The notes beneath the pieces were generated by a model that was not told where the DNA came from, did no database searches, and saw nothing but the letters and a program-made list of their open reading frames with translations. A stretch of DNA of 64,000 nt, taken from positions 1 to 64,000 of IMG/VR virus record IMGVR_UViG_3300031576_000018. One strand, 5' to 3'. The translations under genes were made by a program, and so were the position numbers. Shown here one piece after another: positions 2,086 through 18,585 of the stretch. The first letter of the stretch is position 1. Every line of letters starts with the position of its first letter. Source of the stretch: a virus.

Positions 2086-2311
2086 ACACTCCAGAGCCAG
2101 AGTAAGAACAGAAGAAGGTGTACATGAATTAGTGCTCTATCAAGAAAAACTCTATCTTACCCACTTAGAGAGTGGAGAAAGCCGTACTATATCGACACCC
2201 TATCATATGGATACGTTACTAGATAAGATTGTACATTTTAGGCTAAAGAATGTGGGTAGGCCTAAAGACCTAGACCCTATAAAGAGGCTCATACAGGAAA
2301 TTGATGAGTAA
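2033..2311 (+). CDS. Hypothetical protein overlapping terL start
   Basis: AAGGAG RBS; 92 aa. Confidence 0.6.
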   Translation: MEPTRKQIAQQILQHLIEHSRARVRTEEGVHELVLYQEKLYLTHLESGESRTISTPYHMDTLLDKIVHFRLKNVGRPKDLDPIKRLIQEIDE

Positions 2312-5300
2312 GCTAATTTGTCCACAGAGTAACCAAATTTTGATTGAGTCCTGCATTAAGTTGGGAGAGCGAATAGCGGGTATTCGGCTCTATGACTATC
2401 AGAAGAAGTTTTGCCGAGAGGTTATTTTTGATCTTCTGACTGAGGGAGCTAATACGCTTACCGCACTCTTCTCTAGACAATGTGTTCACCCCGACACTAA
2501 GATAATAACCCCTACAGGTTTTAAGTATGCCCACGAGTTACAAACTAATGACCCTGTACTCTCTGTTTTTGACAATGAGATTTGCATTGACGCTATACGA
2601 GCAAAGACAGTACAGAACTTATTATTTTACAAGATAAAACTTTTTACAAACCATGAGCAAGAAGTCTCTAATATGGAGAGGTTTAAGAAGATAGATCAAA
2701 CGTGGGGCTATATCAAAGACCAATCTATTAAATCAGGCGATCAGATTCAGGTTGCTATTGACCATATTCTCAATGAAGACATTTCTAGAGAGGACTATTC
2801 GGCTAAACAGGCGGGACTTCTTATGTTTGGGCAGCAGTCCCGAATGGACTTATCGGATATTTTAGGTTCCTTAGGTCCTACTAGAAGAGTACAACTCAAA
2901 ACGAAATCGAGAGTGTATGCAGAATCCCTAGCCACCCTCCTCAACACAACAGCATCACAAAGCCAAGATGGGTACACAGTACCTATTGCTTTAGAACCAT
3001 TAGACAGGGAGTATGTTTTTTCGCAGAGGGAGTCTATTCTCAGGCACTTGTTCCAATACGCAGAGATCACCACTTTTCAGTCCAACAGAGGGAAGAAGTA
3101 CAAGATTATTTTCAAGGTAGGTTCTTCAGGTGTGTACAGGGACGCCTTAAGTGCCTTACTCTTGCGAGTTGGCATTATTCACAGGTTCAAGAAAGAAAAT
3201 ATTGAAATTAAGATGTTCGATGGTATTTTTTTATCTCTTCCTTTTCTCAAGACCCATTACCTCTTCTCAGAGCTAAGAAATTATCTCAGGGGTTATAACT
3301 CTAAACTTGGGGTAAGGTTATCACTTAAAGACACCTTCACAATGTTTAAGCAGTTTCCCATCTTACGGGAGTTTGTTAAGGACTCTACGTATAAGTACTA
3401 TAAAAAGAATGGGATTCACTTGACCAAGCTACTCGACCTTCTCTTTAGGACAGAAATTGACCCGGACACGTTGTTTAATTTTCTTCCTAGAACCTATTAC
3501 GCAACGATTAAGGACATTTACTCCACAACTGTAGGTGACGCTATTTCCTTAGAGACAAGAGTGTCAGGAACCTATGTAGCCGAAGGCATGGTAAACCACA
3601 ATTCTGGGAAAACAGAGGCCAATTCAGTTATTTGTTGTTCCATTATGTTGATGTTTCCTCACTTGGCCCATTCTTTCCCAGATGATAACCGCTTTAAAAA
3701 GTTTAAAAAGGGTGTCTGGATAGGTATTTTTGCTCCAAAAGCCGAACAAGCCGATGATTCTTATGAACGGATTAGAACCAAGTTTGAATCAGACACAGGT
3801 AAAGAAATTCTCAACGAGTTCCAAGTCAAGTCCACAGTTTCCAAGGGTGATAGAGTTAAGCTAACAAACGGCTCACGCTGTCGAGCCTGTACAGCCGGAA
3901 AGGACAGTAATATTGAAGGCGATACCCTACATCTTATTATTGGGGAAGAATCTCAGGATATTGACTCTAAGAAGTTTAAAAAGTCCATCCGACCTATGCG
4001 TACAGCCACAGCAGGAACTATCTTAATGATAGGCACAGCCAATATGATTCGGTCGTACTTCTGGGAGACAATTACTCTTAACAAGCGAAAGACTAAGGAA
4101 GCCCAGCGACAATTTCACATTCAAGTGGATTATCAGGAAGCCTCCAAAGTCAATCCGAAGTATGCGATTTCAGTTGTTAAAGAGATAGAAGAGATGGGTA
4201 TCGACTCAGACGAGTTTAAAATGTCCTATATGAACCTTTTTCTCTTCGAGAGGGGTATGGCATTTAAACCAGAGCAATTAGAGCCATTTCACCCCATACT
4301 AAACCCAGAGGGTCTATTCTACAATTATGAAACAACAAACTTTTACAACGGGTACAAGACAGTGATTGTTGGAATTGACGTTGGGAAGCAACAAGATAGG
4401 ACATTTTGCGTGGCTGTGGAGGTAGATTTTGAAAATCCCATCATTGGGAAGCACTTTATAGCCTATCACAAGAAATTAATCGGCTGGACGTGTATGTTAG
4501 GTGATAATTTTCCCCAACAACAGGGAAAAGTAGTCGATTTTCTAGCCCAAATGAACGCCTCAAAAGTCCTGATGGACACCACAGGTAAAGGAGATGCTTT
4601 TTTTGACTATTTGGCAGAAGCCTGTGAACATATTGAGTTTGTTCCTATCCCTTTCTCCTCCAAGTCTAAGCATATGATGTACAGAAGCCTCATTTACGAC
4701 ATGAACGCAGGAAGGGTGCAGTTTCCTTGTGGTAAAGAGACGAAAAAACAGGAACCTTACCACCATTTTATTAGAGAAATGGGAGAATTAGAGAAGAGCT
4801 ACACAGGTGCTTATCTATCCTGCCATAAACCGACTCGATCTGAACACGGAGTACCGCATGATGATGCTTGCTTTCATCCAGATACACCTATGCTAATAAA
4901 AAGAGGCGGTAGAGTGGTTTGCGTAAATATTTCAGAAGCTGTTGTAGGTGATTTAGTGATTACAGACAAGTCTCGATTTAAACCTGTGGTAGCTACAATG
5001 AAAAGAGAATTTGATGGCACGTTGGTAGAGATTAATATTAAGAAGTTGGGTAAATGCTTAGTCACAGCAAATCACCCTATTTTAACTACTACTGGCTATG
5101 TACCCGCGGGGGAACTTAAGTCTGGTAAACATAAAGCTATTAAAACTTTTTACAAAGGAGAGGACAAAGAGGAGCTACCAGACTTCGACCTGCTTCCGGT
5201 TTTTGAAAATTTAGCCAGAAGTTCTAAAAAGAATAATGCTTTAATAGATATGTCCAAGATTATAAGCAAGGGTAAGAAAATAAAATTTAACAACCCTAAA

Positions 5301-6176
5301 GCTAAGTTTCACAACCGCTTTATTAAAATAACCCCCGATCTCTGTAGGTTAATCGGTTATTTTATCTCAGAAGGTGCGTGTGGAAAGCACAGCGTGCAGT
5401 TTTCGTTTAACACGAAAGAGACAGAGTTGCATAAAGATGTTACTAATCTGCTGGCTAAGTGTTTTGGTATCGCTAAGAAAAGTATTGGCGTTCGTCATAA
5501 CGCAAACAACAGCACCGCCGTCTACACTTCGTCTAGAGTAATCAGAGAGTTCTTTAAAAGCCTTGTCCCAGGTACTTCCTCTGATAGAGCGATACCTACG
5601 TTTATCCTAGAGTTAGCACTTGAGTTTAAAGAACAGGTTTTACGTGGTATTTGGCTAGGTGACGGGTATTACAATGAAAGGCAAGTATCTATCGTAACAA
5701 CTTCTCCAACTTTGGCTTATCAGATGAGGGATTTATTCAGTGAACTGGGGGCTATATTCTCAATTGATGTCTCTAAGAGAGCTGGGCGTACTTGTTTAAT
5801 CCGTGATCGGGAAGTAAATCACAACTACGATCTCTTTCAACTTCGCGCAATGTATTTCAAGGATTACAACAAATCTTTAGCTCTTTTAAGCATGGTTACA
5901 AACAATCTAAAAAAAGAGTCTGCTTTTCACAAAGTAGTGGCTGTAGCAGAAGAAACAAGGGTTGTGGCGGAGATACGGTCAATTAAATATTTGCATAAGC
6001 AAGAAAATCAATTCGTTTATAACTTGGAGGTTGAAGATGACCATTCATATACGGTTAACAACCTTACTGCCCATAACTGCGATGCGTTAGCGTTAGCATG
6101 TTATGGAGCTAAGATAGAAGAGAACACGAATCAACAATATGTTGAGGTACGAGATAACATTTTTTACACGAATTAG
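2304..6176 (+). CDS. terL: Terminase large subunit with two inteins (about 513 aa after splicing)
   Basis: LYDYQ motif, Walker A SRQ/SGKT split by intein, EGDTLHLIIGEESQD Walker B, VGIDVG nuclease motif, HDDA/CDALALA split by intein. Confidence 0.93.
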   Translation: MSKLICPQSNQILIESCIKLGERIAGIRLYDYQKKFCREVIFDLLTEGANTLTALFSRQCVHPDTKIITPTGFKYAHELQTNDPVLSVFDNEICIDAIRAKTVQNLLFYKIKLFTNHEQEVSNMERFKKIDQTWGYIKDQSIKSGDQIQVAIDHILNEDISREDYSAKQAGLLMFGQQSRMDLSDILGSLGPTRRVQLKTKSRVYAESLATLLNTTASQSQDGYTVPIALEPLDREYVFSQRESILRHLFQYAEITTFQSNRGKKYKIIFKVGSSGVYRDALSALLLRVGIIHRFKKENIEIKMFDGIFLSLPFLKTHYLFSELRNYLRGYNSKLGVRLSLKDTFTMFKQFPILREFVKDSTYKYYKKNGIHLTKLLDLLFRTEIDPDTLFNFLPRTYYATIKDIYSTTVGDAISLETRVSGTYVAEGMVNHNSGKTEANSVICCSIMLMFPHLAHSFPDDNRFKKFKKGVWIGIFAPKAEQADDSYERIRTKFESDTGKEILNEFQVKSTVSKGDRVKLTNGSRCRACTAGKDSNIEGDTLHLIIGEESQDIDSKKFKKSIRPMRTATAGTILMIGTANMIRSYFWETITLNKRKTKEAQRQFHIQVDYQEASKVNPKYAISVVKEIEEMGIDSDEFKMSYMNLFLFERGMAFKPEQLEPFHPILNPEGLFYNYETTNFYNGYKTVIVGIDVGKQQDRTFCVAVEVDFENPIIGKHFIAYHKKLIGWTCMLGDNFPQQQGKVVDFLAQMNASKVLMDTTGKGDAFFDYLAEACEHIEFVPIPFSSKSKHMMYRSLIYDMNAGRVQFPCGKETKKQEPYHHFIREMGELEKSYTGAYLSCHKPTRSEHGVPHDDACFHPDTPMLIKRGGRVVCVNISEAVVGDLVITDKSRFKPVVATMKREFDGTLVEINIKKLGKCLVTANHPILTTTGYVPAGELKSGKHKAIKTFYKGEDKEELPDFDLLPVFENLARSSKKNNALIDMSKIISKGKKIKFNNPKAKFHNRFIKITPDLCRLIGYFISEGACGKHSVQFSFNTKETELHKDVTNLLAKCFGIAKKSIGVRHNANNSTAVYTSSRVIREFFKSLVPGTSSDRAIPTFILELALEFKEQVLRGIWLGDGYYNERQVSIVTTSPTLAYQMRDLFSELGAIFSIDVSKRAGRTCLIRDREVNHNYDLFQLRAMYFKDYNKSLALLSMVTNNLKKESAFHKVVAVAEETRVVAEIRSIKYLHKQENQFVYNLEVEDDHSYTVNNLTAHNCDALALACYGAKIEENTNQQYVEVRDNIFYTN
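2481..3602 (+). mobile_element. Intein 1 (374 aa) in terminase Walker A, degenerate endonuclease region
   Basis: Starts CVHPDT, ends VNHN, followed by Ser; removal restores SRQSGKT. Confidence 0.9.
4869..6077 (+). mobile_element. Intein 2 (403 aa) with LAGLIDADG homing endonuclease, in terminase nuclease domain
   Basis: Starts CFHPDT, block B TANHP, LIGYFISEG and LRGIWLGDG motifs, VYNLEVEDDHSY...AHN end followed by Cys. Confidence 0.92.
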
Positions 6177-8542: not shown

Positions 8543-10020
8543 TGGGTTTAGTATCAGATTTTGGAAGGCAGTTCTCAATTTATGCGAAAACTTTGTTTCC
8601 TTCCACAGGTAGTACAGATGTTCTTCCGACCGTAGCCCCAGAGGACGCAGAGCGTTTTTCTCGTTACAGCCTTTTTTGGCGTTTTTACATGGGTCAACAT
8701 TGGGAGAATCCGACAAGACCTGATGGAGAGCCGTACTTAACCGCCAATTATCTACAAGCCTTTGTAGACATTGGAACCTATTATCTGATGAATAAACCTT
8801 GGCAGTTAGTCAATACCGATAAAGATTACTCAGATGAGAAAATACCCTATCTAGATGAGATTTGGAAAAACAATAAGAAGCCAGTTTATTCAATAGAGAA
8901 GGCACAAATGGGCGGGGTAACAGGGGATGCGTTTACTCTCATTATGCCTGACCCACTCACAAATCTGCCTAAAAGCTATCTAGTACCTTCTTCGTTCGTT
9001 TTACCGGTCTGGCATCCAACCGAGAGGGGTGTACTTGTTTCTGGTATAGTGCAATTTCCGCTGAAAATGTCTTCAGCGGGTTCTACTGACGTGATGACCG
9101 TAACTGTGGATTCTATGCGTATTGACCAGTATGTTAACGGTGAACTTGTTAATTCAATTGATCACCGCTTAGGTGAACCCCCTCTCATTCTCACCAGAAA
9201 TAAACTTTTATCCTGTTCAAACAGTGGGGTGTCAGACCTTCAACCGGTTATCGACGTGCAAAGGCAGTTTAACCGTAAATTTACAGACATCGGTGATATT
9301 ATTAATCACCATGCTGCTCCCATTACCATCGTCTACGGCACAAAGCTAAAAAACTTAGAGCGGGGTGCTAATAAAGTGTGGGGAGGTTTGCCTTCTCACA
9401 AAGAAGCCAAGGTAGAGAACCTTAACTCTCTAGGTGATTTAAAAGCTGGGACAGAGCATTTAATGTTTATTCAGAAGGTACTCCATCAATTATCTTTCTG
9501 CCCAGAGATTGCCTTAGGTAAAGAGATGGACATTTCCAACACTTCAGCTCTGGCGATACAGCTTTTATTTGGTCCTCTTCTTTTAGTGACGGAAGCCAAA
9601 CACCATTCTTACGGTCAAGGTTTTATGGACGAGAATCGTATTCATTTAAAATGGGGCATCCGGCTAGGGCTTATAACAGCCCCAAGTACACAAAAGGAAC
9701 TTAACAAGTTCTACAGGGCTCCTGTGAAGTTTGGGGTGGCTCTTCCAAGGGACGACATGTTAAACCTTAACAAAGTAATCAACCGTGCTAAAAACGCATT
9801 AATAACTCCTGAGGAGATGTTTGAGGAGTTGGGCGTAACTAATATTGAAGAATATTGGAATGATATTATGTCTTCTATTGATGAAGGAACGTACCCTGCA
9901 ATGTTACTTACCGCTCAAGAAAAGTTAACTAATTTGGGCGGTGTAATGAGAGATGGGGCGACAAATGAACAAATAGACGATATGATAGTTAAAGAATCTA
10001 ATTCAAGTGGAGGAAAGTAA
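8542..10020 (+). CDS. Portal protein
   Basis: 492 aa, FY.G.HW, GGVTGDAF, GVSDL, SNTSALAI SPP1-like portal patterns; position before scaffold and MCP. Confidence 0.85.
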   Translation: MGLVSDFGRQFSIYAKTLFPSTGSTDVLPTVAPEDAERFSRYSLFWRFYMGQHWENPTRPDGEPYLTANYLQAFVDIGTYYLMNKPWQLVNTDKDYSDEKIPYLDEIWKNNKKPVYSIEKAQMGGVTGDAFTLIMPDPLTNLPKSYLVPSSFVLPVWHPTERGVLVSGIVQFPLKMSSAGSTDVMTVTVDSMRIDQYVNGELVNSIDHRLGEPPLILTRNKLLSCSNSGVSDLQPVIDVQRQFNRKFTDIGDIINHHAAPITIVYGTKLKNLERGANKVWGGLPSHKEAKVENLNSLGDLKAGTEHLMFIQKVLHQLSFCPEIALGKEMDISNTSALAIQLLFGPLLLVTEAKHHSYGQGFMDENRIHLKWGIRLGLITAPSTQKELNKFYRAPVKFGVALPRDDMLNLNKVINRAKNALITPEEMFEELGVTNIEEYWNDIMSSIDEGTYPAMLLTAQEKLTNLGGVMRDGATNEQIDDMIVKESNSSGGK

Positions 10021-10022
10021 TT

Positions 10023-10262
10023 ATGCCTGGACCCGGATATTCTAGTTCACTGAGAACCAACGCACGTATAGGTGGTATGCCTAGCCCTAACTCGTCAACG
10101 TCTCGTATGGACATGGCGAGTGGTTTGGCTATTCAACCTGTAGGACCTAAGAGAATGACACAAGCGGATATGAATAACAGACCCCCAACTATGTTAAATT
10201 CTGCGAATACCTCTCTGGCAGGTTTTATTAAACGCACAGCCATGAAAAATGGTATGCTATAG
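10023..10262 (+). CDS. Small disordered head-module protein
   Basis: GGAGG RBS; between portal and scaffold. Confidence 0.55.
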   Translation: MPGPGYSSSLRTNARIGGMPSPNSSTSRMDMASGLAIQPVGPKRMTQADMNNRPPTMLNSANTSLAGFIKRTAMKNGML

Positions 10263-13915: not shown

Positions 13916-14336
13916 TCCATGGGCGCAAGGTAGATGGCAAGATTTTTCAGATATCCTAGACAATCCAGAAGAAAATTTCAGGTATTCAATTTATCGTCCC
14001 TTTTCTACTTACGATGAAACCAGAGCTGCAATAGAGCGCACTGTTACGGTTGTCACGGCAGAAGTTGGTATGTGGATATATCCCCAAGAACTAATTAAGA
14101 TTCAAACTCATGATGGAAAGATAGTTAACACGGATGTTATTTTCTTGGTTAAACCCAGGGTAGATGTTTTGCAGAACGACTATATCGAGCGTTTAGGTAG
14201 GGATAGAATCCTTTATCGTGTAGGTGGAATTAACGACCTGCTCTCTCACAAAGAACTTTTTTGTTATCGACCTGACCAAGATTTCCAAGGCTTAGATAAC
14301 TCCGTAGGCACAGAAATAAACGCCTTTGTCATATAA
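13899..14336 (+). CDS. Putative head closure/stopper protein
   Basis: DVLQNDYI...YRVGGI beta-barrel pattern; synteny. Confidence 0.55.
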   Translation: MATVGNPWAQGRWQDFSDILDNPEENFRYSIYRPFSTYDETRAAIERTVTVVTAEVGMWIYPQELIKIQTHDGKIVNTDVIFLVKPRVDVLQNDYIERLGRDRILYRVGGINDLLSHKELFCYRPDQDFQGLDNSVGTEINAFVI

Positions 14337-15115
14337 TGGCAAAACCTAAGCGATTTGGAATAAGTATCGACCCTGATATTACCAAAGAGGCTGTTAAAGA
14401 AATTGAACGTGTTGCTAAAAAAAGTTTTCGAGAAGATTTATTGAAAAAACTCGCTAAAAGTCAGAAGGAAATATTAGACAACGTAGGAGAAGCAGCTATA
14501 CAATCTATTTCTGACGGAGGTACAAAAGTCATCATCGATCCTGAAACACCTGCTAGTGACTTTAGAGTGTACAACGAACCTGCTGGGGCTAGAAGATTTT
14601 CTGATTTAACGGGAGAATCCGCCAAAGCTATTCGGTATCGAGTAGCAGCACAAAGAGGGGCTATAGGCAGGTTTTCTACTAGCCTTACTTTAACGTGGGG
14701 ACCAGTGATAGTTGACGTGGGTTTTGTACACAACAGAGTGAAGAGAGCCGAAGGAGGTATAGAGGGGACGGGGAAAAAGTTAGTGAGGAAAAGGCAATTG
14801 TCTGGTTCAGAGGATAAAGTTAGGATGCTTGAGGAAGGCAGCACTTTTCATCAAGTTAGCAAAAGCCCGTTTGTAGATTTAGAAGGTGTTACGCACGCTA
14901 GGGGTTTTTATCCGTTAGAGGGGTTTGTAAAACACAACCAAGACCCAGTAACTGAAGCCTTTTTTAATGAGGTTAACAAAAATATTTTCGATGTACTCGA
15001 TAAATTAGAAGAGCAATTCAGAGCAAGTAAATCTTCTAAAAGCGTCAAGAAGCCTTCAAGAGGGCGCACTACTATAAAAGGTACACAAAAGAAAGCGGGT
15101 ATGGGTACAAAATAA
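14336..15115 (+). CDS. Putative tail completion/neck protein (HK97 gp10-like)
   Basis: Basic, MLEEGS motif, synteny. Confidence 0.45.
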   Translation: MAKPKRFGISIDPDITKEAVKEIERVAKKSFREDLLKKLAKSQKEILDNVGEAAIQSISDGGTKVIIDPETPASDFRVYNEPAGARRFSDLTGESAKAIRYRVAAQRGAIGRFSTSLTLTWGPVIVDVGFVHNRVKRAEGGIEGTGKKLVRKRQLSGSEDKVRMLEEGSTFHQVSKSPFVDLEGVTHARGFYPLEGFVKHNQDPVTEAFFNEVNKNIFDVLDKLEEQFRASKSSKSVKKPSRGRTTIKGTQKKAGMGTK

Positions 15116-15573
15116 TGGACAACGTAGTCAAAGAGTTATTTAAAACGATTACCAATAAAATTATCACTGATGGCGAAGAAGTAAATTCCCTACTTTCTTT
15201 AGTTGACTCGGCTCAATTTCACAATCCTAAATTTTTTACACAGTTTGATGCCAAGGAAGTTTATACGCAAAACTTACCTCGTTTAACTTATAGAGGTGTG
15301 TCAGAGCCTAGCGTTGGGGATAAGCATTCTTTATTATTCTTTGCCAATATCTATTCTAAAGATTATAATCTAAATGGGGCTATTGGTTTAAGACTCGACT
15401 ACTTACTGATTAAACCGTACGTAGAAAGAAACTTGAGACTTAAGAGAATGTTTCCTCTCTTAAGTAATATAGGAAAAATTTCGAGAGCTGAATCAGATAA
15501 AGAAGCCTATTACCAGGAAACGCACGAACGTGTAATAAAATATAGAATACTGTTTGTAGAGAAAGGAGCCTAA
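15115..15573 (+). CDS. Putative tail terminator
   Basis: LPRLTY, NIYS patterns; immediately before tail tube. Confidence 0.5.
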   Translation: MDNVVKELFKTITNKIITDGEEVNSLLSLVDSAQFHNPKFFTQFDAKEVYTQNLPRLTYRGVSEPSVGDKHSLLFFANIYSKDYNLNGAIGLRLDYLLIKPYVERNLRLKRMFPLLSNIGKISRAESDKEAYYQETHERVIKYRILFVEKGA

Positions 15574-15574
15574 A

Positions 15575-16774
15575 ATGGCTAGCCCTACTGTTAGAAAAAT
15601 GACCAATATTGTTGGTGCGCTTCCTATAGGTTCAACAAGTGTATCTGTTACAGATTCAACAGAACTAGATTTAAACGCCTCTTTGGACTTTGGGGCATAT
15701 AATGGAAACGCCGTTGCTGTAGGGGATATCATTCAGCTTGTTAACCCAGCAGATCCTGGCGGTGTTAGAAATAGATTTCGAGTGGATGTCATTACACCCG
15801 GCGGTGTAGGTGCTCCAGATATTATCACTTTTGATACAACCGGACCCACTCTCACCTCGACCAGCGTTGTCTATCCAGACGGTTCAATCGTAGAGAGGCT
15901 GTCAGCAAAGCAAAACAACGCGGCTTGGACAGCACAAGCAGATGCCATAGTTGAACCAGGAACCTTGATAGAGGGTTTACATTATCAATTTAATCACGGC
16001 TCTGGATTAGTTCGTTTTACCGATGCCTTTATCGCCACAGGCTCTTTATGGAGTGTCTTGTTTGACTATAAATCAGCTTCAGGTAGAGAAGTTAACTTAG
16101 GTAAACGTCAACCCAACTTAGAGTTCCAAGTGAGATTAGAGCATTACTTCCCAGGTGTTGGTGCAAGCGGAAACAGAAAATTAATTACCACACTGCATAA
16201 GTGTGAGGTTACTCCTGAAAACCCAAACATGGACTTCAACGCAGACGATTGGATAGCACCAGAATTTACTATTGCCTGTTTAGAGTCTTCAGACCCTGCC
16301 CATGTTAACAACCCATTTGGTAAGGTTTTTGTTGAAAATAATCCAGTTAACTTGCTACCTTACTCTCAGTACAACACCGAGAACTATTCAGTCGGTGTAT
16401 TTGATATGTTCCTTACCCCGCTAAGTGCTGCGACAGCCATTGCCCGCAACTTACCACAAACTGGTTTCTATGTTGGTAACGTAGTCACAGGCGGTATTGA
16501 AGCGGTTAACGAGTTCTTAGACCACTTCAGGGGCGTTCCTAAGAAACGTGATAAACGGATTCTTATCCAACAAGAGTTTAATGTTAACGCAACCATAGAC
16601 GAATTGACTGCGGTTAACTTAGCCATTCTCTTTAATGGGGACATTACCGATTTAAGCTCCTTAACTCCTGTCAACGCACAAGGCACCGTAACTGTTCCAC
16701 CTGACCAGTTTGTACCAGGTGACTATGTGTATGTATGGGTTCCACTAGGCTATATTTTTATCAACCCAAGTTAA
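15575..16774 (+). CDS. Major tail (tube) protein, apparently circularly permuted
   Basis: Tube motifs NYSVG, YVGN, EFLDH, NLAILFNG and DDWIAPEF; followed by terminator. Confidence 0.75.
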   Translation: MASPTVRKMTNIVGALPIGSTSVSVTDSTELDLNASLDFGAYNGNAVAVGDIIQLVNPADPGGVRNRFRVDVITPGGVGAPDIITFDTTGPTLTSTSVVYPDGSIVERLSAKQNNAAWTAQADAIVEPGTLIEGLHYQFNHGSGLVRFTDAFIATGSLWSVLFDYKSASGREVNLGKRQPNLEFQVRLEHYFPGVGASGNRKLITTLHKCEVTPENPNMDFNADDWIAPEFTIACLESSDPAHVNNPFGKVFVENNPVNLLPYSQYNTENYSVGVFDMFLTPLSAATAIARNLPQTGFYVGNVVTGGIEAVNEFLDHFRGVPKKRDKRILIQQEFNVNATIDELTAVNLAILFNGDITDLSSLTPVNAQGTVTVPPDQFVPGDYVYVWVPLGYIFINPS

Positions 16775-16837: not shown

Positions 16838-17254
16838 ATGGATCTATCACACATTGACCTGAACGCCGTGTTGTCCAATATTGGAATAGCACTGGGTTAC
16901 ATAGCTGGTGCAATCGGGGTGGCTATAACTGCGGCTAAATACTACGTAGATAAAGAGTCTAAGGAACCAATGGAGGCGTTAAAAAAGAGTTTACTGGATC
17001 TTCAACAAAAGGAAGAAGAAGCCAGAAAGGTATTTAAGGAAGAAATTCATGCTGAGTTTAAAAAGAATGATAGTGAGCAGAAAAAGTTTCTTGAAAAGGT
17101 GCAACAACTACTTTTAGATAATGCAACAAGTAGAAAGGATGTGGAGGCATTACAAGAGAAGTTTAATCATATTAGGCAACATCACAGCGGGTTGGACACA
17201 CGAATAAATGATATAGACAAGCGTGTTTTTCATATGGAACAGAAGGGAAAGTGA
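16838..17254 (+). CDS. Single-TM coiled-coil membrane protein (holin-like)
   Basis: N-terminal hydrophobic helix IGIALGYIAGAIGVAITAA then coiled coil; AGGAGG RBS. Confidence 0.55.
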   Translation: MDLSHIDLNAVLSNIGIALGYIAGAIGVAITAAKYYVDKESKEPMEALKKSLLDLQQKEEEARKVFKEEIHAEFKKNDSEQKKFLEKVQQLLLDNATSRKDVEALQEKFNHIRQHHSGLDTRINDIDKRVFHMEQKGK

Positions 17255-17620
17255 GCTATTTGTACGATTTTACTAGTTGACCCACACCCCCGAATGTCTG
17301 TATCTTTACAAAAGTAGTTGACAAGTTGGGGTTATAACGTGTGTGGTGTTTTTTCCCTAAAGGACGCTTTGGCTGTTCTGTCTGAACCTATTTCAATTAA
17401 CTTTTTAATTACTGAGTTTTGGCTAGAGGACACATTTAGAGCAAGCGACCTTCTTTTTAACCCACTCTTCCTCTGTGGTGAAATTCCAGAGGTGTGCTTA
17501 ACATTAGAATATCGCTCTTCGGTATTACAACCTCTGAGAAACAGAGGAATTAAAGTGTACAAGAAATTCATAGATATGGCTAAACTTAGAAAAGAACTCG
17601 ATAAGCATCTCATGTTATAA
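17251..17620 (+). pseudogene. Disrupted response-regulator receiver (REC-like) domain
   Basis: TILLVD...SLQK*LTSWGYNV...LKDALAVL...FLITE...CLT...YKKFID; TAG at 17315 plus upstream TGA or frameshift. Confidence 0.55.
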
Positions 17621-17653: not shown

Positions 17654-18238
17654 ATGGCGATCAAACGTGAGACCCTAGAAAAGAAGTCAGATTTAAAAAA
17701 GACAGAGGAAGACACTTATCTTGAAGAGGTTATAAAAGAGCAGGAAGTAAAGTTGGTGGGTGGCCACACGTTTGTGTTAAAGCAGTTAGGCTATAAACCA
17801 CAAAAGCGGGTGATGGACATTATTGGACGAATTTTTAAAGAGTGTAAGGAAGAGCTCACTATCTGGCTAGACGAATATAAAAAAGAACGAGAAGAGTTGA
17901 ACAAACTTATTCGAGAGGAAAACAACAATATTGTTGAGACCAATAAAGCGTTGATCACCTCAGGAAACGCCGTAGACCTCTTGGAAGCAAAAGCCTTCAT
18001 AACCAATATTGACGTACGTGTTCTTTTCATCGAAAACTTAGATTTGTTTATTGATAAATGCCCAGACGCCGTTGGGGATGTGGTGAAGATGGCGGGCGGA
18101 AAAGACGATCAATTCTTAGAGGAAGCCTTACCAGCCTCAATTATTTATCTCTTTCGGAGGATCGTAGAGATCAATTTTTTAGCAAGCGGCTATCTCGAAC
18201 AGATCGGAAAGCTCCTAAACGCTATGCCAACAGCATAA
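17654..18238 (+). CDS. Tail assembly chaperone (gpG-like)
   Basis: Between tube and tape measure; slippery heptamer near 3' end. Confidence 0.75.
   Translation: MAIKRETLEKKSDLKKTEEDTYLEEVIKEQEVKLVGGHTFVLKQLGYKPQKRVMDIIGRIFKECKEELTIWLDEYKKEREELNKLIREENNNIVETNKALITSGNAVDLLEAKAFITNIDVRVLFIENLDLFIDKCPDAVGDVVKMAGGKDDQFLEEALPASIIYLFRRIVEINFLASGYLEQIGKLLNAMPTA
18175..18181 (+). other. Programmed -1 frameshift site T TTT TTA
   Basis: In-frame X XXY YYZ heptamer; -1 frame open to 18585. Confidence 0.7.
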
Positions 18239-18585
18239 AGTTCAAGGGACGCAATAATGGTAGGCAAGGAGATAAAAATCTGGGTTGGGGAGACGTGGTA
18301 ACCTACCTTGCACGTAATGGGTTTGGCACGGAAGAGCATCTGTTAGAAAACATGTCTAAAGACGCTATGCTCTATTACTATGAGAAGTGTCACGAACAGC
18401 AAATGAAAGAATTGGCTCAGAGCATGAATGCTAATCGCACGGCATACCACGCTAACAAGCAAGACTTTAAGAAAGCGTATAATAAACTCAGTGACTTGAA
18501 AAAAGATGCTCAAGCCACACCCAATAAGTTTATGCAAATGTTAGGAGGTGTTCAGAGTGGCTCTGGGGATAAAGATAGGTCTTGA
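18178..18585 (+). CDS. Frameshift extension of tail chaperone (gpGT-like, about 310 aa fusion)
   Basis: -1 frame ORF overlapping chaperone and ending just inside tape measure gene. Confidence 0.7.
   Translation, partial: FSKRLSRTDRKAPKRYANSIKFKGRNNGRQGDKNLGWGDVVTYLARNGFGTEEHLLENMSKDAMLYYYEKCHEQQMKELAQSMNANRTAYHANKQDFKKAYNKLSDLKKDAQATPNKFMQMLGGVQSGSGDKDRS

Follow-up and report, generated by a model that had tools for sequence, protein, structure and literature searches.

A major tail tube protein with its blocks in swapped order: sequence evidence for a natural circular permutation in a phage known from a metagenome

Can a tail tube be built from a protein whose two conserved blocks follow one another in the reverse of the usual order? 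The question is raised by one gene in a 64-kb window (the whole stretch of DNA that was analysed), which is the first part of an IMG/VR virus record that has 90,839 bp and direct terminal repeats, belonging to a phage known from a metagenome alone. The tail tube fold recurs in every long-tailed phage, in tailocins, and in type VI secretion systems and contractile injection systems, and the variations on it of which we know are insertions, terminal decorations and tandem duplication. A preliminary description of the window, made by reading its sequence, had recognised in the product of this gene, P0001, the motifs of a siphovirus tube protein in an order swapped relative to canonical tube proteins, and had proposed a natural circular permutation of which the chain was opened within an accessory domain. 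The motifs it quoted could all be located in the translation of the ORF, i.e., HYQFNHGSGLVRF at residues 136-148, QVRLEH...DDW...FTIACL at residues about 185-236 (nucleotides about 16127-16282) and NYSVG...GN...EFLDH...DELTAVNLAILFNG at residues 270-355 (nucleotides 16382-16639), and the analyses below ask what their order means.

A gene in the classical place of a major tail tube gene

The ORF of P0001 has an ATG start and is uninterrupted, with a Shine-Dalgarno sequence upstream of it (Table 1) and the stop codon of the preceding gene, at 15571-15573, directly ahead. Upstream lie the portal gene (phrog_64, Pfam SPP1_portal), the major head protein gene (phrog_1357) and neck genes, and between the major head protein gene and P0001 there are four small genes without assignment. 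The neighbouring genes at 14336-15115 and 15115-15573 are without a family assignment, and one of them might conceivably encode a second tube protein, of a family not yet recognised; PHROG and Pfam scans found nothing for most of the tail genes nearby. Upstream of the portal gene is an ORF of 1291 residues (2301-6176), far in excess of the usual length of a large terminase.

Downstream of P0001, the position of two overlapping ORFs, the second in the -1 frame, makes them a putative tail assembly chaperone pair, probably of the G/GT type expressed via a programmed frameshift. The product of the second frame shares 28% identity with that of the corresponding ORF (9599-10078) in L004, a 101-kb IMG/VR contig that recurs below. 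The next gene, by its size and position that of the tape measure protein, has a product 33% identical to that of an ORF of >2382 residues at the matching position of L004. Major tail tube genes of siphoviruses classically follow the head and neck genes and precede those for the chaperone and tape measure proteins; P0001 lies between head-tail connector genes and chaperone and tape measure genes, and the gene order around it is thus that of the classical major tail tube place of a siphovirus-type phage.

Two small ORFs separate P0001 from the chaperone pair, one at 16838-17254 (138 aa), with a hydrophobic N-terminal stretch by eye and then a charged, repetitive remainder, and one at 17318-17620 (100 aa, TTG start). 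They gave weak PHROG matches only, and are an unusual insertion into an otherwise standard tail module. As for the tape measure proteins, the ORF of L004 (10082-17227) runs to the end of the fetched locus, hence the lower bound on its length; at the customary 0.15 nm or so of tail per tape measure residue, the two sequences would imply tails of roughly 260 nm for the window phage and >350 nm for L004.

Table 1. Features of the tail tube gene and its surroundings in the window
Feature	Residues of P0001	Window positions	Strand	Basis
Shine-Dalgarno sequence AAGGAG, 6 nt before the P0001 ATG		15563..15568	+	read from sequence
Major tail tube protein gene (P0001, 399 aa), circularly permuted		15575..16774	+	profile and homology searches
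Later part of domain 2, with extra sub-insertion	1 to about 176			alignment
Outer accessory beta domain: later domain 2 and lineage-specific sub-insertion	6-129	15590..15961	+	VIA-align to Mystique 9n71
HYQFNHGSGLVRF, conserved DY..D...G.IRF strand pair closing domain 2	136-148	15980..16018	+	alignment
Canonical C-block of the tube domain, placed first	177-255	16103..16339	+	hhalign, HMM, genome search
Core of the join between old C-terminus and old N-terminus	256-268	16340..16378	+	alignment
Canonical N-block, placed second	265-366	16367..16672	+	hhalign, genome search, A1 against YSD1/Chi 29-105
C-terminal tail: first domain 2 strand(s) (W..PLG....NP)	363-399	16661..16771	+	rotated alignment
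Putative tail assembly chaperone pair, overlapping ORFs, second in -1 frame		17654-18238 and 18058-18585	+	position
Tape measure protein, 1745 aa		18548..23785	+	size and position

Order of the tube blocks

Among the PHROGs, P0001 matched phrog_807, "major tail protein with Ig-like domain", with an E-value of 6e-13, and did so with residues 124-238 on positions 129-237 of a profile of 256, so that a central stretch of P0001 is aligned to the last part of the profile. Pfam 38 carries a precomputed assignment of P0001 to PF27730 (UCP028589), which the ESM Atlas names a tail tube family. An exhaustive phmmer search with P0001 over 1.84 billion representatives found 22 proteins, among them eight full-length, colinear relatives at 33-43% identity (P0002-P0009), a fragment (P0010) and 12 distant proteins (P0011-P0022). 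In 10 of the latter 12 the match consisted of two HSPs in swapped order, residues ~266-370 of P0001 falling on the N-terminus of the target and residues ~119-255 on its C-terminus.

Which of the two orders is the ordinary one was clear from the distant proteins themselves. Eight of the 10 that were scanned matched phrog_807, colinear with the profile (e.g., P0020 with residues 12-276 on positions 4-240), with no match for P0013 and P0018, and P0017 passes the cut-off of Pfam Phage_TTP_17. A profile of all 12 (A2) aligned in a single colinear stretch to the solved tube proteins of YSD1 (YSD1_22, 6XGR) and phage Chi (8VHX), at an E-value of 2e-30, and was likewise colinear with the JBD30 major tail protein (8RK3; E 3e-8). 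P0012 matched, in one colinear piece, the major tail protein gene in 162 phage records, mostly Chi-like. By all these alignments the distant relatives of P0001 are ordinary tube proteins of canonical order, and two of them, P0011 and P0022, have a large domain 2 comparable to that of P0001.

Against this reference the swapped order was found with HMM, hhalign, profile and genome searches. The canonical HMM matched P0001 with a full-sequence E-value of 1.7e-43 and gave two swapped domains in all nine of P0001-P0009 (iE 1e-16 to 1e-27), the earlier part of each sequence aligning to HMM columns ~88-257 and the later part to columns 6-100; in P0001 itself, columns 104-257 cover the C-block region. 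Two further proteins, P0023 and P0024, gave the same pair of swapped domains, for a total of 11 permuted family members. With hhalign, residues 127-255 of P0001 aligned to 160-285 of P0020 (prob 99.4, E 5e-21) and residues 265-361 to 9-105 (prob 99.1, E 8e-19), and the third alternative had a probability of 0.6%. The profile of the query family (A1) was equally swapped relative to the solved YSD1_22 structure (6XGR), its positions 273-347 matching 29-105 of the chain and 94-219 matching 140-265, and relative to 8VHX and a Chivirus major tail protein (MTP). A search of the genome with the canonical profile placed nucleotides 15860-16339 on profile positions 111-260 and 16367-16672 on positions 6-101; P0001 was its sole match, and no second tube homologue was found by that profile in the 90.8 kb.

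The order N-block, domain 2, C-block is absent from native P0001 and was restored only by rotation. Rotated in silico at the old C/N junction, each of nine sequences became one domain over HMM columns 6-257, with a score that differed by no more than about 9 bits from the sum of its two native pieces; six sequences scored above that sum and three below. Segments that are swapped, that become colinear once rotated and that leave no duplicated remnant are, at the level of sequence, what defines a circular permutant, and all of this was found in P0001. The preliminary description had predicted that tail tube proteins would be matched by two HSPs whose order is swapped, and this was the result with phmmer, HMM, profile, genome search and hhalign alike. 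The outcome that it had named as contrary to a permutation, a single colinear alignment to known tube proteins, occurred neither with the canonical nor with the solved ones. On the evidence of sequence, P0001 is by descent a member of the YSD1/Chi-type family with its blocks in swapped order.

Several searches returned little. The local Pfam-A library, which is without PF27730, gave no match to P0001 at E <= 10, phmmer with P0001 alone against the PDB gave a chance match only, tblastn found nothing in 50,697 phage records, and a word-index protein search returned only P0001 itself, or P0001 and P0008. A shuffling of Ig-like domains was also considered and rejected: P0017, P0018 and P0019, which are without the accessory domain, still have the N-block first and the C-block last, an order that in these three is read from weaker second phmmer HSPs.

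The landmarks of both blocks could be assigned residue by residue. In domain 1 of the YSD1_22 tube protein, two four-stranded sheets form a sandwich that bears a long hairpin (45-69), and the C-terminal domain 3 is Ig-like (PMC7385642; PMC8718954). A canonical chain of this type runs from the N-block (N-loop, first strands, hairpin and helix) through domain 2 to the C-block (last strands and the lumen-facing DDW), and by alignment that of P0001 starts inside domain 2 and proceeds through the C-block, the join and the N-block to the first strand or strands of domain 2. In P0001, the C-block has H190, the lumen acidic pair D224-D225, W226 and a terminal PFG (252-254), and the N-block has NYSVG (270-274), GN (301-302), E313.LDH317, the hairpin at ~307-335 and the helix DELTAVNLAILF (342-353). 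The lumen-facing acids of YSD1, E47, D249 and D250, which have been described as conserved (PMC7385642), correspond by alignment to E313 and D224/D225 of P0001; the position of E313 is a glutamate in seven of nine members of the permuted family, and D225 and W226 are invariant.

Between the PFG and NYSVG lie about 20 residues, or 15 as counted from 255 to 269, which keep the motif of the old N-loop, Y...NY.VG, as it stands at the Chi N-terminus. Since the length of this join is about that of the canonical C-terminal and N-terminal tails summed, and the N-loop pattern is kept, the join looks like a direct head-to-tail fusion of the old termini. The C-terminal tail finishes at the turn where the chain was opened, and the rotated tail and head align to a contiguous canonical/Chi segment, RYYQLGTTDDNP followed by TGVRSV, as WVPLGYIFINPS followed by MASPTVRK; Chi itself reads RYYQLGTTDDNP TGVRSV across the opening site, as one contiguous turn of domain 2. 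The permuted proteins end in W.PLG....NP(A/S) and start with M(A/G)...VR.., and the N-terminal pattern of P0001, MA.P.VR, is conserved in the family alignment. The earlier proposal that the chain was opened within the accessory domain is thereby supported. The length of this domain varies among family members in the A1 alignment, and the strand pair that closes domain 2, HYQFNHGSGLVRF, aligns to the canonical entDyvvdysiGrirr and to NYEIDLEAGRIY in Chi.

The likeness to the YSD1/Chi proteins (6XGR, 8VHX; phrog_807; Chivirus, Casjensviridae), whose tube blocks are homologous to those of P0001, extends to NY.VG, GN, E.LDH and the hairpin, the NLAL helix, DDW and P(F/Y)G, to a domain 2 with DY..D...G.I, to the lumen acidic residues and to a place upstream of the tape measure gene; the order in Chivirus ST-101 is terminator, MTP and TMP, and the synteny of L004 is as in the window. 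Identity over the blocks is about 20-25%. What sets P0001 apart from these proteins is a rotated chain in which the old termini are fused and the new ones lie in the domain 2 turn, the lack of the C-terminal Big_1 Ig-like domain 3, and an extra sub-insertion of ~100 residues in domain 2. The JBD30 (8RK3) and Mystique (9N71) proteins, unlike P0001, have the canonical order with an inserted domain between the two tube blocks, and the inserted domain of Mystique (103-178) resembles residues 6-129 of P0001.

Independence, rarity and origin of the permuted form

That the window comes from a metagenome-derived virus record could suggest a misassembled or chimeric contig, in which the halves of a canonical gene were joined in the wrong order. 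The chance of this is negligible given that 10 further homologues, from independent assemblies, share both the swapped order and the conserved junction, and that the ORF is uninterrupted and its N-terminus, MA.P.VR, conserved; the same homologues exclude the assembly break inside the gene that the preliminary description had named as the other outcome contrary to its proposal. The permuted members were assembled separately, in Logan, JGI/IMG and ENA data, on contigs of up to 111 kb. The fragment P0010 is short simply because its contig, of 916 bp, stops within the gene; P0024 (377 aa), which belongs to the same cluster, is complete and has the permuted order.

The contig L004 is one of these. 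It has a GC content of 61.5%, very different from the 39.8% of the window, and a syntenic tail module, its gene order that of the window, with a permuted homologue of 411 residues. Compared with their counterparts in the window, the portal is 36% identical, the capsid 34%, the tube 31% and the tape measure protein 33%. The canonical profile found two swapped pieces on L004 and nothing else. The recurrence of the permuted order in this syntenic contig shows that it is no assembly artefact. Across 11 sequences the arrangement is kept at about 30-45% identity, and it is no artefact, and under selection.

The permuted form is also rare, as a metagenome scan with A3 gave canonical relatives, together with domain-2-like modules in giant proteins, and not one permuted newcomer. 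Scans of IMG/VR with P0001 and with A3 found nothing, and that with A4 found one locus, L004. A scan of genome contigs with A4 found no prophage copy, and the phage of P0001 is accordingly without a host assignment.

The giant proteins are encoded by ORFs of ~2,500 residues, in L011 (3853-11424), L015 (263-7810), L016 (3859-11340) and also L012 and L014, and hold one or two of the domain-2-like modules (HMM columns about 117-175, with LVENTDY..D...G.I). The recurrence of these modules suggests that the accessory domain of the tube is mobile and has found a second use in proteins of very large size.

A tree of the two tube blocks (175 columns), with the permuted sequences rotated and 17 canonical ones included, placed the permuted sequences together with canonical P0011, P0013, P0014, P0018 and P0022 in one clade with 100/99 support. 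These five (PF27730, UCP028589) are the nearest relatives and have the same motifs but, unlike the P0001 family, are colinear with the solved structures. Resolution inside the clade is poor, and a single origin was not rejected (AU p 0.33); judging from the sequences, the permutation probably arose once. Most likely a canonical gene was first duplicated in tandem, in frame, or fused, and the outer halves were then lost. The tube proteins of T5 (pb6) and P74-26 are also gene-level rewirings of the tube fold, by tandem duplication and fusion, and by analogy a fusion of their type is likely the type of intermediate that leads towards circular permutation. Both of their domains are intact and their rings are trimeric, whereas P0001 has a single set of blocks, rotated. 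Neither a tandem-gene nor a pb6-like intermediate was seen among the few contexts inspected.

Probable folding of the permuted chain and what it would mean

Structure prediction with AF2 gave a pLDDT of 31.6 from the single sequence of P0001, and a mean pLDDT of 61.5 with a pTM of 0.43 from an alignment of nine sequences. In the latter model the hairpin (307-335) is of low confidence, the join (263-273) has a pLDDT below 50, and residues 177-357 are packed by the monomer as one compact tube/Hcp-like domain. Exhaustive VIA-align comparison of these residues matched 6XGR (Z 6.0), Hcp1 (Z 5.9), the Pa193 tube (Z 5.8) and the SPP1 tube (Z 4.8), values that are middling and come from an aligner that compares in sequence order; the 9% identity to 6XGR shows that the register is not the homologous one, as expected of a permutant. 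The accessory domain, residues 6-129, aligned to 103-178 of Mystique 9n71 with Z 7.7, an rmsd of 1.9 A and 25% identity over 76 residues. Foldseek with the alignment-based model found nothing significant in the PDB or BFVD. As the Z values are middling, the aligner follows sequence order and Foldseek gave no significant match, that P0001 has the canonical tube fold is something we infer.

The ESM Atlas holds three clusters of viral hypothetical proteins of 170-177 residues (73, 71 and 54 members), whose models superpose sequentially on residues 169-360 of P0001 (16079-16654) with a TM of 0.77-0.78 normalised to them. Either these small proteins have the rotated order of strands as well, or the tube sandwich is so nearly pseudo-symmetric that a half-rotation still superposes.

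How such a chain would assemble can be framed by what its ends do elsewhere. In canonical tube proteins, contacts from ring to ring and the control of assembly involve both the free N-loop and the C-terminal end. The importance of the N-loop is plain from YSD1_22, which ceases to self-associate when residues 1-8 are removed (PMC7385642). P0001 is very probably a functional tube protein in which the two blocks close within one chain, with hexameric rings, both termini outside and the N-loop internal. On this reading, the C-block and N-block would fold together intrachain into the usual tube domain; six copies would form a ring, and the rings would be stacked around the tape measure protein. Both new termini would lie in domain 2 on the outer surface, and the former N-loop, needed as a free end in YSD1, would here serve as an internal loop.

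The pairing of the blocks could also be arranged between chains, i.e., as a daisy-chained, domain-swapped hexamer in which the C-block of each subunit pairs with the N-block of its neighbour in the ring, which would keep the linker geometry of an ancestor of the tandem-fused T5 pb6/P74-26 type. A short link between ring positions is feasible geometrically, since tandem-fused tubes exist (T5 pb6, PMC5717097; P74-26, PMC10034513). The route of duplication and then truncation passes via such a tandem-fused form, and the linker (263-273) is predicted at a pLDDT below 50. Set against this, most natural circular permutants fold within one chain, and the AF2 monomer packs residues 177-357 compactly, although a monomer prediction cannot reveal swapping. 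In addition, a monomer with half domains would be unstable before assembly, whereas the YSD1 tube protein is a soluble monomer (PMC7385642), and we regard the swapped hexamer as unlikely. Still harder to sustain is the idea that P0001 is a tandem duplicate like pb6 that has partly decayed, with residues 1-126 a degenerate N-block and the C-terminal tail the remnant of a C-block. Two complete tube domains per chain, as in T5 pb6, are not present in P0001. Its length does exceed that of minimal tube proteins (about 180 aa), but the whole of the rotated chain is what a canonical protein has when its domain 2 is large, as in P0011 and P0022, and both HMM and hhalign found one N-block and one C-block only. 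Moreover, residues 6-129 match the inserted domain of Mystique (Z 7.7, 25% identity) and no half of a tube domain, and the 37-residue tail aligns to the first strand of domain 2, so that a decayed duplicate is very improbable. Of these readings, it is the closure of the two blocks within one chain that is preferred.

The literature searched had no description of a circularly permuted tail tube protein, the only papers found being on circularly permuted genomes; a 2021 review of major tail proteins has no occurrence of "permut", and no mention of UCP028589 was found. To our knowledge, and within that literature, such a protein has not been described before. The finding matters for annotation, as tools that depend on sequence order, e.g., Pfam, Foldseek and BLAST, under-detect permuted tube proteins, and a scaffold with both termini outside the tube would have a potential use in display and engineering. 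Were the daisy-chained hexamer true after all, its rings would be covalently "threaded" and folding would be coupled to assembly, a new control of tail polymerisation. With the blocks closing within one chain, the reading preferred here, the fusion of the old ends in the permuted lineage would mean that a free N-terminus is dispensable in a tube protein, making the permuted tube a natural experiment on the control of polymerisation. A very conserved building block of the phage tail would thus appear to tolerate a rewiring of its chain, in a small lineage of large phages.
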